Shown piece by piece: positions 40,845 through 46,535 of a stretch of 51,169 bases of DNA. Position 1 is the stretch's first letter. Each line of letters opens with the position of its first letter. The stretch is from a virus. Taxonomy: Duplodnaviria; Heunggongvirae; Uroviricota; Caudoviricetes. Made by a program: the position numbers and the translations under genes. The DNA lies in the IMG/VR virus record IMGVR_UViG_2541047830_000012; one strand, given 5' to 3'. Under the pieces are notes generated by a model. It was not told where the DNA came from and did not search any database. It saw only the letters and a program-made list of their open reading frames with translations.

Positions 40845-41054
<210 letters not shown>

Positions 41055-41142: not shown

Positions 41143-41859
<717 letters not shown>

Positions 41860-41977: not shown

Positions 41978-42883
41978 ATGCCAAATTTACCGATGGGCGG
42001 ATCGCAGGGTGAATTACCCTTAGTACCTACAGTAGAAGTTGTTGCTGATGGCATTCCTATGGGGGTGCTTAATGATGGAACCCCTTATCTAACTCTTTAC
42101 GGTTTAGCCAAATTATGTGGCATAGATGAAGCACCTCTTCGAATGTTTACATCTAACTGGGAGACTGAAAAAAATAAGCCAAGAGGACAAAAAGTAGCTG
42201 CATACTTAGCTGAGAAAGGATTTAACAACGTTGACCGACTGTATACCCGCGTCATAAATAGCTCAAACGTTGAAACACATGCTTATCCTGACTATGTTTG
42301 TATGGCTATCCTCCGTTACTACGCTCTAGATGCCACCAATTTTGATAGGTCAGTCGCAATAGGTAATTTTGTTCGCTTGGCTGAGTACACGCTTAAGCGA
42401 ATGATTTATGAAAAGTCAAATTACAACCCAAATGCTTCAATAGATATCTCATTCGAGAACTATAGAGCAAGGATTAAGCTAAACGATCAGATACCGACAA
42501 CTCATTTTGCAGTATTCAGAGAGATAGCTGACATTGCCATGAACCTGATCGGAGGAGGATTCCCAATGGATGACACCACATCTTTGGATGGAAGTGTTGG
42601 AATTCACTGGGGAAAGTATTGGACAGCTAATGGGCTATCTGAGAAATTCGGGGAAAGGGTGCAGTACCCACATCTATTCCCCGAAAATTACAGGCAGTCA
42701 GCTGCAAATAAGCATATAAAAGCTTGGATTTATCCTATTGAGGCACTTGGCGTGTTCAGAAAATGGCTACACGATAATTACGCAATGGAAAAACTGCCAA
42801 ATTACCTTGGGAACAAAAAGATTAGTAATGCCTCCGAGCTATTAGAGTTGATAAAAAAACCAGCACTCCCAAATAAGCATTGA
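41978..42883 (+). CDS. Uncharacterised 301-aa protein occupying the rexA-rexB position
   Basis: AAGGAAA RBS; AT-rich coding sequence; palindromes upstream and a GC hairpin terminator downstream; N-terminal segment IPMGVLNDGTPYLTLYGLAKLCGI weakly resembles Bro-N/KilA-N/antirepressor N-terminal DNA-binding motifs; rest unrecognised. Confidence 0.7.
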   Translation: MPNLPMGGSQGELPLVPTVEVVADGIPMGVLNDGTPYLTLYGLAKLCGIDEAPLRMFTSNWETEKNKPRGQKVAAYLAEKGFNNVDRLYTRVINSSNVETHAYPDYVCMAILRYYALDATNFDRSVAIGNFVRLAEYTLKRMIYEKSNYNPNASIDISFENYRARIKLNDQIPTTHFAVFREIADIAMNLIGGGFPMDDTTSLDGSVGIHWGKYWTANGLSEKFGERVQYPHLFPENYRQSAANKHIKAWIYPIEALGVFRKWLHDNYAMEKLPNYLGNKKISNASELLELIKKPALPNKH

Positions 42884-42897
42884 TCTCCACCACAACC

Positions 42898-42924
42898 CGG
42901 CATCTGCGCCGGGTTTTCTTTGCC
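42898..42924 (+). terminator. Rho-independent terminator after the rex-position gene (timm analogue)
   Basis: CCCGGC-atctgc-GCCGGG followed by TTTTCTTTG. Confidence 0.6.
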
Positions 42925-43071
42925 TAACGCCCCCAAAAAACACATAACCAATTGTATTTATTTTAAAATTAATAGATACAACTCGCTAAACATCGCAATT
43001 CATATCTCTCGATCACCTTCCCAATCCACACAACCCTGCAAAAAATAAATCTATATAAAAAACATACAGAT

Positions 43072-43134
43072 AACCATCTGCGGTGATAAATTATCTCTGG
43101 CGGTGTTGACATGAATACCACTGGCGGTGATACT
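43072..43134 (+). promoter_or_regulatory. Left operator OL3-OL2-OL1 with pL
   Basis: AACCATCTGCGGTGATA, TATCTCTGGCGGTGTTG, TACCACTGGCGGTGATA; -35 TTGACA (43106-43111), -10 GATACT (43129-43134); match lambda as recalled. Confidence 0.85.
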
Positions 43135-43172
43135 AAGCACATCAGCAGGACGCACTGACCACCATGAAGGTG

Positions 43173-43204
43173 ATGCTCTTAAAAATTAAGCCCTGAAGAA
43201 GGGC
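43173..43204 (+). promoter_or_regulatory. nutL (boxA and boxB)
   Basis: boxA TGCTCTTA and boxB hairpin GCCCTGAAGAAGGGC, the latter identical to lambda boxB as recalled. Confidence 0.8.
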
Positions 43205-43361
43205 AGCATTCAAAGCAGAAAGCTTTGGTGTGTGTGATACGAAACGAAGCATTGGCCGGAAGTGCGAATCCGGATTAGCTGCCAATGTGCCATTGCGGGG
43301 TGTTTTCGTTCAGGAATACGACTCCCACACACAACCAAAGCTAACTGACAGGAGAATCCTG

Positions 43362-43688
43362 ATGGATGCACAAACACGCCGCCGCGAACGTCGCGCAGAG
43401 AAACAGGCTCAATGGAAAACAGCAAACCCCCTGTTGGTTGGGGTAAGCGCAAAACCAGTTAACCGCCCTATTCTCTCGCTGAATCGCAAACCGAAATCAC
43501 GAGTAGAAAGCGTACTGAATCCGATAGACCTTACAGTGCTGGCTGAATACCACGAACAGATTGAAAGCAACCTGCAGCGTATTGAGCGCAAGAATCAGCG
43601 CACATGGTACAGCAAGCCACGCAGTGAAATGGGTGTGACTTGTGTTGGTCGCCAGAAAATGAAATTAGGCAGCAAACCACTTATTTGA
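43362..43688 (+). CDS. N: Antiterminator N
   Basis: MDAQTRRRERRAEKQAQWKTANPLLVGVSAKPVNRPILSLNRKPKSRVES… matches lambda N as recalled; start at internal ATG 43362. Confidence 0.9.
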   Translation: MDAQTRRRERRAEKQAQWKTANPLLVGVSAKPVNRPILSLNRKPKSRVESVLNPIDLTVLAEYHEQIESNLQRIERKNQRTWYSKPRSEMGVTCVGRQKMKLGSKPLI

Positions 43689-43699
43689 GAGGAATTAAT

Positions 43700-44323
43700 A
43701 TGTCATCAATCCGCTTAACTACGAGAATGAAAGAGGAAATCGCTCGTAACGCTTTAATTAAGTCTGGGGTTTTCACTGAACTTGAAGAAGTAACAAAGTT
43801 AAAGAACCAGCTTGCACTTGACGCCAGAGTTATTGCGTTTGGCGGGAAAAAGAAAACTGAGGAAGTTGATCAGTTATCATCCAAGTTGGTAGCTATAAGT
43901 GAAGAACTTGAAAAGATGGGATGTTCATTTTACTCATACGATGTTCGTTCTACTTCAATTTATCTGACTGCATCTGGCAGAAGGATTGGATGGCATTCAT
44001 ATGGGAAAGACGGCAACGGCGAAGATATATTGCTCCCTACTCCGAACAAAGATAAATGCATGTTTAGCGCAGAACACGAAATAACAAAAAGGTTTGATGA
44101 AATCTGCGCATTGCAACAAAAACTTGAAGCCAAGAAAAAGGATATCGAATCAAATGTATGGGCTGCTTTGAACTCAGTCACAACAGTTAAGCGACTTATT
44201 GAGGTTTGGCCTGAAAGCAAAGAATTGCTACCAAAAGAAGCAGATAAAGCAAGTACAGCACTTCCTGCTTTACGGGTAGAAGATTTGAATAAGATGATTG
44301 GACTTCCTTCCGAGGCCGCATAG
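43700..44323 (+). CDS. Uncharacterised 208-aa pL-operon accessory protein
   Basis: AT-rich ORF straight after N in the ral/sieB position; own terminator overlapping its stop; no recognisable motif. Confidence 0.6.
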   Translation: MSSIRLTTRMKEEIARNALIKSGVFTELEEVTKLKNQLALDARVIAFGGKKKTEEVDQLSSKLVAISEELEKMGCSFYSYDVRSTSIYLTASGRRIGWHSYGKDGNGEDILLPTPNKDKCMFSAEHEITKRFDEICALQQKLEAKKKDIESNVWAALNSVTTVKRLIEVWPESKELLPKEADKASTALPALRVEDLNKMIGLPSEAA

Positions 44324-44338
44324 TCGGCCTTTATTTTT
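44313..44338 (+). terminator. Rho-independent terminator (tL1-like)
   Basis: AGGCCG-catagt-CGGCCT followed by TTATTTTTGG. Confidence 0.6.
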
Positions 44339-44386
44339 GGCATAAACAACAGAATAAACACTGCACTGAATTATTTGAGGTGAGAT

Positions 44387-44857
44387 ATGACAAAATCACG
44401 GAGCGTACCTTTTCCTGAATCAGAAACTGAACATAATGGAATGCCTGTTTTCTGGAGATTCCAAGCGACAGTTGAAGAAGATGGAATCAAAATATTCGCA
44501 CTTCAATATATAGCTTTTCATCAGACAGAGCATTATGCATGGTTGGTTCCTGCGCATTGGATTGTTGATTTTAAACCAGCACCAAATCAGTGGTTACAGG
44601 AATGGAAACAAAGGAGAAATAGATATGCAATTAAGAAAGTAGCAAAAAATGCAGAAAGATCTTTTGCATTCCCAACGAAGAAACTTGCTATTGAAAGTTT
44701 ATTGCGTCGGAAGAAATACCATTTAATGAGAATAAAACAAGATTTGGCTGTTGTATCAACTCTTGTTGATGGGATGAAAAATATTGATACATCAATACCA
44801 GATATTGAATATAACTTTGGACACAACCAAGAAACAGAAAATTGGGTATTTTATTAG
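44387..44857 (+). CDS. Uncharacterised 156-aa pL-operon accessory protein
   Basis: GAGGTGAG RBS; AT-rich; followed by a 9-bp inverted repeat and a terminator; no recognisable motif. Confidence 0.6.
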   Translation: MTKSRSVPFPESETEHNGMPVFWRFQATVEEDGIKIFALQYIAFHQTEHYAWLVPAHWIVDFKPAPNQWLQEWKQRRNRYAIKKVAKNAERSFAFPTKKLAIESLLRRKKYHLMRIKQDLAVVSTLVDGMKNIDTSIPDIEYNFGHNQETENWVFY

Positions 44858-44961
44858 TACGAATAAGCACTGTGTATTCATTCCAACGAGTGAATACACG
44901 GAGCAATGTCGCTCGTAACTAAACAGGAGCCGACTTGTTCTGATTATTGGAAATCTTCTTT

Positions 44962-44988
44962 GCCCTCCAGTGTGAGGGCGATTTTTTA
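44962..44988 (+). terminator. Rho-independent terminator
   Basis: GCCCTC-cagtgt-GAGGGC followed by GATTTTTTAT. Confidence 0.6.
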
Positions 44989-45007
44989 TCTATGAGGATA
45001 TGAATAG

Positions 45008-45376
45008 ATGTCAAACATCAAAAAATACATCATTGATTACGACTGGAAAGCATCAATAGAAATTGAAATCGACCATGACGTAATGACAGAGGAAAAACTT
45101 CACCAGATTAATAATTTCTGGTCAGACTCTGAATACCGACTCAATAAACACGGCTCTGTATTAAATGCTGTATTAATCATGCTGGCGCAACATGCTCTGC
45201 TTATAGCAATTTCAAGCGACTTAAATGCATATGGTGTTGTGTGTGAGTTCGACTGGAATGATGGAAATGGTCAGGAAGGATGGCCTCCAATGGATGGTAG
45301 CGAAGGAATAAGAATTACCGATATCGATACATCAGGAATATTTGATTCAGATGATATGACTATCAAAGCCGCCTGA
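45008..45376 (+). CDS. Hypothetical acidic protein (122 aa)
   Basis: ORF with GAGGA RBS; Asp/Glu-rich C-terminus. Confidence 0.55.
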   Translation: MSNIKKYIIDYDWKASIEIEIDHDVMTEEKLHQINNFWSDSEYRLNKHGSVLNAVLIMLAQHALLIAISSDLNAYGVVCEFDWNDGNGQEGWPPMDGSEGIRITDIDTSGIFDSDDMTIKAA

Positions 45377-45410
45377 GAGCGTTTTTAAAGAATACAACGA
45401 AGGAGGATAT

Positions 45411-46379
45411 ATGAGTGAAGTAACAGATTTAGTTGTTATTGAAAAATCAAATGCAATGACTGTATTTCAGTCTGCCGACCAGATTGAAGAAATCCTTCAA
45501 AAGGTTGAACGTGAAGTTATGTCCTTTGTTCCTGATATCACAACGGCAAAGGGCAGGAAGGAGATCGCTTCTCTGGCGTATAAAGTTGCGCAGACGAAAA
45601 CATATCTCGATGGTCTTGGCAAAGACCTTGTTGCTGAACTGAAGGAAATTCCAAAGCTAATTGATGCCAACCGCAAGACAGTGCGTGATCGCCTTGATGA
45701 GCTGAAAGCCAAGGCACGCCAGCCTCTTACTGATTATGAGGAAGAACAGGCGCGGATTAAAGCCGAAGAAGAAGCTAAGGCAGCAGCTGAAGCTCTCGCA
45801 AAGCAAATTGAGTCTGACCATGAAATAGCTATTTTGATGGATCGCGAATTTGACCGCCAAAGAGAAGAGGCAAGACTCAAAGCGGAGCAGGAAAAGCGAG
45901 AGCATGAAGAACGCTTAAAAAGAGAAGCTGAAGAGAAAGCCAGAGCAGAAGCCGAAGCAAAGGCAAAAGCCGAAATTGAAGCAGCAGCAAGGCGAGAAGC
46001 AGAAGCTAAGGCCGCTGCGGAACGAGCAGAGCGTGAACGCATTGAAGCCGAGCAACGAGCACAGCGCGAAGCAAAAGAGGCAGCAGAACGAGCTGAAAGA
46101 GAAAAGCAGGCAGCAATTGAAGCAGAACGCAGAAAAGCACAGGAGGAGGCTGAACAAATCCGTCGCGATGCTGAAGCAAAAGAGCAAGCCAGAATAGCAG
46201 AAGAAAAAAGAATCAAGGACGAAGAAGAGCGTAGAGCAAAGGATAAAGCTCACCGGAAAGAAGTTAATAACAAAATACTTGCTGACCTTATCAAGGTTGG
46301 CGCATCAGAAGATGTTGCTAAAAATATCATAACAGCCATCGTAAAAGGCGAAGTATTCGCAACAAAAATAACCTACTAA
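45411..46379 (+). CDS. Coiled-coil protein with charged E/A/K/R-rich central region
   Basis: 322 aa; AGGAGGA RBS; long low-complexity AEREAKAAAE-type stretch; the opposite-strand ORFs in this stretch are artefacts. Confidence 0.6.
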   Translation: MSEVTDLVVIEKSNAMTVFQSADQIEEILQKVEREVMSFVPDITTAKGRKEIASLAYKVAQTKTYLDGLGKDLVAELKEIPKLIDANRKTVRDRLDELKAKARQPLTDYEEEQARIKAEEEAKAAAEALAKQIESDHEIAILMDREFDRQREEARLKAEQEKREHEERLKREAEEKARAEAEAKAKAEIEAAARREAEAKAAAERAERERIEAEQRAQREAKEAAERAEREKQAAIEAERRKAQEEAEQIRRDAEAKEQARIAEEKRIKDEEERRAKDKAHRKEVNNKILADLIKVGASEDVAKNIITAIVKGEVFATKITY

Positions 46380-46403
46380 TAAAACCAACATAAGGAACCA
46401 CCC

Positions 46404-46535
46404 ATGATTTACGCAATCGCGGGAGGCGCTCGCATGGGTGCCTTCCAACTAAATGAATCTTTACTTGAACGAATCACCCGTAAATTACGTGACGGATGGA
46501 AAAGAGTTGAGGTCTTATTATGCGCAATGAAATAG
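46404..46535 (+). CDS. cIII: CIII-like protein
   Basis: Not in the ORF track (43 aa); MIYAIAGGARMGAFQLNESLLERITRKLRDGWKRVEVLLCAMK shares ESLLERITRKLRDGWKR with lambda CIII as recalled. Confidence 0.7.
   Translation: MIYAIAGGARMGAFQLNESLLERITRKLRDGWKRVEVLLCAMK

Follow-up and report, generated by a model that had tools for sequence, protein, structure and literature searches.

The open reading frame that directly follows the antiterminator gene N in the window (the whole 51,169-nt stretch of viral DNA analysed here) is, by its sequence, a lambdoid member of Nmad5, a named, widespread and uncharacterised phage family. A terminator-like hairpin overlaps the last codons of the gene, and the two together constitute a discrete exchangeable cassette of ~0.7 kb between N and the ea10/cIII block. 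We propose, with a probability of roughly 45%, that this pL-expressed exchangeable cassette encodes a soluble, non-enzymatic early protein that binds a target in DNA metabolism or defence; this functional proposal rests on position and neighbourhood, and we hold it with low-to-middling confidence.

The DNA is matched at 100% by E. coli ZH063 and comes from a lambda-immunity prophage whose early-left region, in which pL reads rightward, is set out in Table 1. An AT-rich ORF after N had been called in the initial annotation with a length of 208 aa, a count that included the stop codon; the ORF is real, and its coding status is supported by a full-length Pfam match, membership of phrog_1965, the 2,314 clusters of its family and dN/dS. 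Its GC content is ~39% versus ~51% in N, and the accessory genes beside it, including those in the following 1.5 kb, are equally AT-rich. Only 11 nt separate the N stop codon from the start of the gene. An antisense ORF of 133 aa (43960-44361) matches no PHROG family and was therefore not taken as a gene. In the interval from cI to pL, the location of rexA and rexB in lambda, the window carries a homologue of the abortive-infection protein BstA, 0.8 kb upstream of the Nmad5 gene.

Table 1 Features of the early-left region, in window coordinates
Feature	Position	Strand	Basis and details
cro	40845-41045	minus	
cI	41146-41859		
301-aa ORF, BstA homologue	41978-42883	+	PADLOC 2.9e-106; phrog_6287
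OL/pL	~43060-43140		
pL promoter, TTGACA-17-GATACT	43106-43134	+	promoter scan; region homologous to lambda pL/OL
nutL boxB hairpin, GCCCTGAAGAAGGGC	43190-43204	+	sequence; region 91% identical to lambda
Antiterminator N, lambda type, 108 aa	43362-43688	+	Pfam N36, 7.3e-26; stop TGA 43686-43688
Mosaic unit: 3' end of N, gene, terminator and ~30 nt beyond	43608-44368		breakpoints
Shine-Dalgarno GAGGA	43689-43693	+	6 nt before ATG, immediately 3' of N stop
Nmad5-family gene, 207 aa + TAG (208 codons counting the stop)	43700-44323	+	Pfam, PHROG, RefSeq name; ATG 43700, TAG 44321-44323
Most conserved family block, codons 159-203, SVTTVKRLIEVWPESKELLP...LPALRVEDLNKMIGLP	44174-44308	+	alignments
R165 codon	44192-44194	+	aligned with Dhillonvirus K296
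Intrinsic-terminator-like hairpin + TATTTTTG	44312-44339	+	pattern, folding, conservation

The protein had initially been described as lacking any recognisable motif, a description that no longer applies: it matches Pfam PF18757, "Nucleotide modification associated domain 5", over the full length of the profile (E = 9.4e-72; 241.8 bits against a gathering cutoff of 27; residues 4-203 aligned with profile positions 1-206 of 206), and it already bears the RefSeq/NCBI name "Nmad5 family putative nucleotide modification protein". It also matches phrog_1965, a family with no assigned function, at 1.7e-83, and a 100% identical copy with identical neighbours is found in a prophage of E. coli ZH063. 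Alignments located the N-terminal Nmad5 motif RLT..I..NA and the C-terminal motifs WPE..ELLP and DLN..IGLP. NCBIfam gave no match, none of the PADLOC defence HMM families matched the protein at E <= 1, and a Pfam hit to YfjL_C (18 bits against a cutoff of 28), which fell inside a coiled-coil stretch, was disregarded. Literature searches found no experimental study of Nmad5 activity, and nothing useful in the way of functional work on phages HK542 and mEp235 or on the Pfam and PHROG accessions of the gene; it is thus named but uncharacterised, and not the well-characterised lambdoid early protein that it might have turned out to be.

The family comprises 2,314 representatives at 50% identity, nearly all of them standalone proteins of 190-220 aa. 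In an alignment of 138 divergent members, P178 and N197 are the sole invariant residues, and the positions conserved in at least 90% of members (I14, A18, R43, G48, G93, T162, L166, W170, P171, E172, L176, L196 and G201) are mainly hydrophobic, Gly or Pro. No conserved catalytic-looking residues were found in this alignment, and the pattern of conservation looks structural or binding-related rather than catalytic. The window protein has a pI of 6.8 (family median 7.7), values on which we rejected DNA mimicry, and no membrane segment, its maximum Kyte-Doolittle hydropathy being 0.61 over a 19-residue window. Among 61 close alleles dN/dS is ~0.3, and the variable positions lie nearly all before residue 162.

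An AlphaFold2 model (mean pLDDT 84.6, falling below 50 at residues 184-191) begins with three N-terminal helices, which are followed by a middle rich in beta structure (~86-125), a long helix (residues 127-158) and, at the C terminus, short helices; a conserved helical stalk is built from the helices of both termini, and the beta-rich middle is variable. The C-terminal module, WPE..ELLP / LPA..V.DLN..IGLP, is highly conserved and partly disordered in the model. Foldseek searches of the PDB returned nothing below E 0.26, a BFVD structure search returned only other Nmad5 proteins, and neither single-sequence nor 138-sequence profile searches found a relative among PDB sequences. The remote-homology and structure-prediction check suggested in the initial annotation has thus yielded a family, Nmad5, and no PDB fold or sequence relative. 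Because invariant residues are few, the conserved columns are hydrophobic, Gly or Pro, the pI is neutral, and there is neither a membrane segment nor a PDB relative, we favour a binder over an enzyme.

The family name points to a different activity, modification of phage DNA bases. Nmad5 was reportedly named by Iyer et al. in 2013 from gene neighbourhoods, as cited in PMC11846954, and the homologue in Yuavirus SN1 does lie within a thymidine-hypermodification cluster. The Yuavirus proteins (M6/SN1) have the C-terminal half in common with the window protein (residues 121-207, ~32% identity), but the window has none of the enzymes (aGPT-Pplase, kinase, radical-SAM and PLP) that are encoded on either side of their genes. 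The neighbourhood that gave the family its name, one with base-modifying enzymes, is likewise not seen in related lambdoid phages: in the identical ZH063 prophage the 8 kb to each side of the gene contain no annotated modification enzyme, and there are no such genes in the HK542, mEp235, PhiR12, Klebsiella or Providencia contexts. The Yuavirus cluster, moreover, sits inside a replication module, a setting in which Nmad5 also occurs in phages without modification genes. Taken with the lack of catalytic-looking conserved residues in the 138-member alignment, this makes a base-modifying role very unlikely.

At the 3' end of the gene, the stop codon was expected from the initial annotation to lie within a terminator hairpin, and indeed TAG falls in the 6-nt loop of GAGGCCG-CATAGT-CGGCCTT, a 7-bp stem with five G-C pairs that is followed by TATTTTT, so that a G+C-rich stem-loop and an immediate T-tract are both present. 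The folding free energy is -11 kcal/mol for a 33-nt segment and -13 kcal/mol for a 51-nt segment. As a pattern, the hairpin does not rise above chance, with five sites observed versus 3.9 expected in shuffles and a folding-energy z of -1.04; we take the putative terminator as real because of its conservation across loci, cargo types and lambda, and not because of its pattern or energy. Its 3' arm, the T-tract and ~30 nt beyond are common to lambda and the window, its 5' arm consists of the last codons of whichever gene occupies the slot, and every 5'-arm variant seen across 80 IMG/VR loci retains the ability to fold (-4.3 to -16.5 kcal/mol). This conservation supports the hairpin as a candidate terminator. 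The earlier description of the gene as terminator-insulated therefore fits its 3' side; on the 5' side nothing separates it from N.

Two further hairpins were seen in the region. A minus-strand terminator call at 43190-43204 was a false positive, this site being the nutL boxB hairpin known from lambda. A second and stronger terminator-like hairpin (44960-44981, plus strand; 8 bp then TTTTTTAT) lies just upstream of ea10, is common to lambda, and may be one of lambda's tL2 sites.

The region to the right of N has long been known as mosaic, and the identity of the gene as a family member was already annotated; what could be newly defined are the junctions of the cassette. Homology with lambda extends from pL through N to 43663, leaving the last ~25 nt of N different from lambda, and returns at 44320; the equivalent lambda position, 34087, directly follows the stop codon of ral. 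The Nmad5 gene thus replaces lambda sieB-orf28-ral. Across 80 IMG/VR loci with close relatives and four reference phages, upstream breakpoints fell at 43608, 43635/6, 43665-69, 43680 and ~43336, and downstream breakpoints at 44368 (60 loci) and 44353 (11 loci). The gene is found behind at least five different N contexts; copies of ~98% nucleotide identity follow three unrelated N types, namely a lambda-type N in HK542, an HK620-type N plus a Nun-like gene in mEp235, and a third type in PhiR12. With breakpoints defined on both sides, the notion of a discrete cargo gene put forward in the initial annotation is borne out. In mEp235 (locus L002, 3909-4000), a non-coding remnant of a lambda-type N gene, corresponding to its last ~27 codons, lies between the Nun-like and Nmad5 genes, and looks like a trace of cassette movement.

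Searching IMG/VR for the shared downstream terminator flank and scoring the gene that ends in the hairpin gave 66 loci, at ~42 of which the cargo was Ral; membrane proteins of phrog_3054 with a variable middle occupied 10 loci, the Nmad5 gene seven, an 83-aa protein (phrog_2471) four and an acidic 107-aa protein (phrog_1372) three. Five cargo families, Ral among them, thus end at a common terminator arm, and the slot is variable among related prophages as had been anticipated, which is not the behaviour of a core gene. A true Ral from the slot scores 1.6e-48 to PF11058. The phrog_3054, phrog_2471 and phrog_1372 proteins (for example at IMG/VR loci L100, L102, L111 and L132) all end ...AA, because the 5' arm of the hairpin is coding.

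The distribution of the gene is patchy: of 334 phage records with a match to the surrounding region, 77 carry it, as do 211 of 5,426 complete E. coli genomes (~4%), and a scan of genome contigs gave four loci only. Among 49 related loci, seven carry both ral and the Nmad5 gene, so that the two are not strict alternatives. We rejected a strict tie to one recombination system, since the gene combines freely with Erf/Abc2 or Gam/Bet modules. In 48 records of Stx2a-converting phages (for example LC616032, locus L017, 1427-2640), the gene is split after nt 104-107 by an IS3-family element that encodes a 108-aa HTH_Tnp_1 ORF and a 296-aa rve ORF; the insertion thus inactivates the gene in this lineage. 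As a discrete insertion with its own terminator the cassette resembles a moron, although we found no promoter-like site between pL and the gene that could serve for expression in the prophage.

Early expression from pL, as suggested initially, agrees with the layout. A simple consensus scan of 42900-46500 found pL as the only sigma-70-like site on the plus strand, and scans between N and the Nmad5 gene found no terminator and no separate promoter. In lambda, tL1 lies between N and ral; the N-to-ral interval of lambda is absent from the window. Given the 11-nt gap and the lack of an intervening terminator or second promoter, the gene should be co-transcribed with N and silent in the lysogen. 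On this layout, we infer that it would be transcribed from pL together with N before N antitermination is needed, that unmodified polymerase would stop at the hairpin at the end of the gene, the first intrinsic terminator met, and that N-modified polymerase would read through it; repressor would keep the gene silent in the lysogen. Rho-dependent termination may occur within the gene, and a weak promoter may have been missed by the consensus scan. Klebsiella and Providencia prophages carry homologues of 46-59% identity as the first gene after the repressor, with several different repressors, and the promoter-proximal early position thus recurs across phage groups.

This expression pattern bears on the suggestion in the initial annotation that the gene might act in superinfection exclusion, or more broadly as an abortive-infection gene that protects the lysogen. 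The slot is near known exclusion genes, sieB in lambda and the BstA homologue here, and membrane proteins are among the cargo of the identical slot. A gene carried on the pL transcript without a promoter of its own should, however, be silenced by repressor, and silence in the lysogen argues against exclusion. SieB-like action would call for a membrane protein expressed in the lysogen, whereas the Nmad5 protein is soluble (hydropathy maximum 0.61) and pL is its sole promoter in the simple scan. The family is also common in N4-like, Dhillonvirus and Yuavirus phages, which are virulent, and the protein has no PADLOC match. Superinfection exclusion was thus a weak suggestion, and we regard it as extremely unlikely; the other half of the suggestion, an anti-defence role, seems a reasonable idea for this gene on our analysis.

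The closest known system by position is lambda Ral (PF11058), which acts in restriction alleviation and occupies the same place in the pL operon. The same terminator takes its 5' arm and loop, in lambda, from the last codons and stop of ral; its 3' arm and T-tract are common to both, and ral, like the Nmad5 gene, is a small, dispensable early accessory gene. The proteins themselves differ: Ral has 66 aa and the window protein 207 aa, they have no sequence relationship, and the window protein does not match PF11058. A distance of ~1 kb, with sieB in it, separates ral from N in lambda, whereas the Nmad5 gene abuts N. With T7 gene 0.3 (Ocr) and other anti-restriction genes that are expressed first, the analogy is one of position only: they too are promoter-proximal and precede the remaining early genes in expression. 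Ocr, a DNA mimic, is strongly acidic, in contrast to the neutral window protein with its unrelated predicted fold.

In our preferred reading, then, the Nmad5 protein would be soluble and non-enzymatic, a binder that acts on DNA metabolism as soon as infection begins. Such a protein would either protect phage DNA or alter the activity of a host nuclease or of a component of immunity, and would belong to the functional class of Ral, Gam and Abc2. The link to DNA metabolism or defence derives from the neighbourhoods of distant relatives and from Tmn escape in Dhillonvirus.

Among 22 non-redundant distant IMG/VR clusters, seven have the order DUF2800 nuclease, Enc34-type SSB, Nmad5, PolA. Nmad5 lies between ThyX and a PD-(D/E)XK nuclease plus primase in the N4-like phage SP154, between a DUF3799 exonuclease and an AAA_24 protein in Amjad_SA, and ahead of replication protein O in Athena1; PD-(D/E)XK nucleases and a Sak4-like ATPase flank it in N4-like and Pseudomonas phages. 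In lambdoid phages the gene lies in the operon that carries erf, bet or exo, and in Dhillonvirus it stands alone on the opposite strand, amid head genes. Such neighbourhoods, which extend from early operon to replication module, thymidine-hypermodification cluster and lone head-region gene, are mixed, and this counts against the binder proposal; a second RecBCD modulator is, furthermore, not obviously needed, because related phages already carry Abc2 (34 of 49 loci).

The same neighbourhoods are the strength of the main rival, in which Nmad5 is an accessory factor for replication or recombination that is internal to the phage and not directed at the host. It would partner the phage's own SSB, exonuclease, annealase or polymerase, acting for instance as a mediator or loader. 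Its placement between SSB and PolA downstream of the nuclease, beside nuclease and primase in SP154, beside the exonuclease and AAA_24 protein in Amjad_SA, ahead of protein O in Athena1 and within the erf/bet/exo operon would all suit such a factor. Less easily accommodated are the free combination with either Erf/Abc2 or Gam/Bet modules in lambdoid phages, the exchange with ral and other unrelated cargo, the restriction to a minority of matching phage records and E. coli genomes, the IS-split copies in Stx2a phages and the solitary position on the opposite strand among Dhillonvirus head genes. On balance we think an accessory role of this kind unlikely.

The sole experimental link for the family comes from Dhillonvirus, where escape from Tmn maps to Nmad5 K296E (K216E in SMA8), deletion of Nmad5 gives no escape, and attempts to clone the gene failed, apparently through toxicity (PMC11846954). 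This result is genetic and ambiguous. The Dhillonvirus proteins at the Tmn-escape locus (SM_S22 CDS6 and SMA8 CDS7) belong to the same family and align end to end with the window protein at ~30% identity, with a beta-rich middle that is ~50 aa longer in Dhillonvirus; their genes lie on the opposite strand among head genes, whereas the window gene is in an early operon. Dhillonvirus K296 is aligned with R165 of the window protein, in the conserved TTVKRLIEVWPES helix. The GenBank Nmad5 CDS of phage SM_S22 (locus L012, 1796-2800) overlaps a scaffolding gene on the other strand, and its start is probably annotated 80 codons too far upstream, so that K296 of SM_S22 and K216 of SMA8 are the same residue; the SECphi18 homologue starts MRLTKDIK.

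A bolder form of the binder proposal, which we think doubtful, is that Nmad5 is misnamed, and that its more than 2,000 clusters (at 50% identity) are immediate-early proteins that neutralise or evade host DNA-targeting immunity through the conserved C-terminal binding module, with the R165/K296 helix setting target specificity. Single substitutions could then extend activity to systems such as Tmn. Were the protein a modulator of defence or of a host nuclease, a function would be gained for a family that occurs in thousands of phages of proteobacteria and in ~4% of complete E. coli genomes, and the Dhillonvirus escape mutations would be explained; the slot between N and the terminator would also be a good place to seek counter-defence genes, since other uncharacterised cargo families share the junction. 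Its position and a single suggestive genetic precedent make the gene a reasonable candidate in screens for counter-defence, rather than a surprise.

Two other ORFs are encoded further along the plus strand. Directly after the terminator, a 498-bp insertion (44369-44866) relative to lambda, HK542, mEp235 and PhiR12 contains a 156-aa ORF (44387-44857) of phrog_1636, which has no function assigned; because only six of the 49 related loci carry it, this insertion looks like a second, independent cargo element. Beyond it, in a region of strong AT skew, a 322-aa ORF (45411-46379) rich in Glu, Ala, Lys and Arg belongs to phrog_1376, and is missing from all 49 related IMG/VR loci with full flanks.
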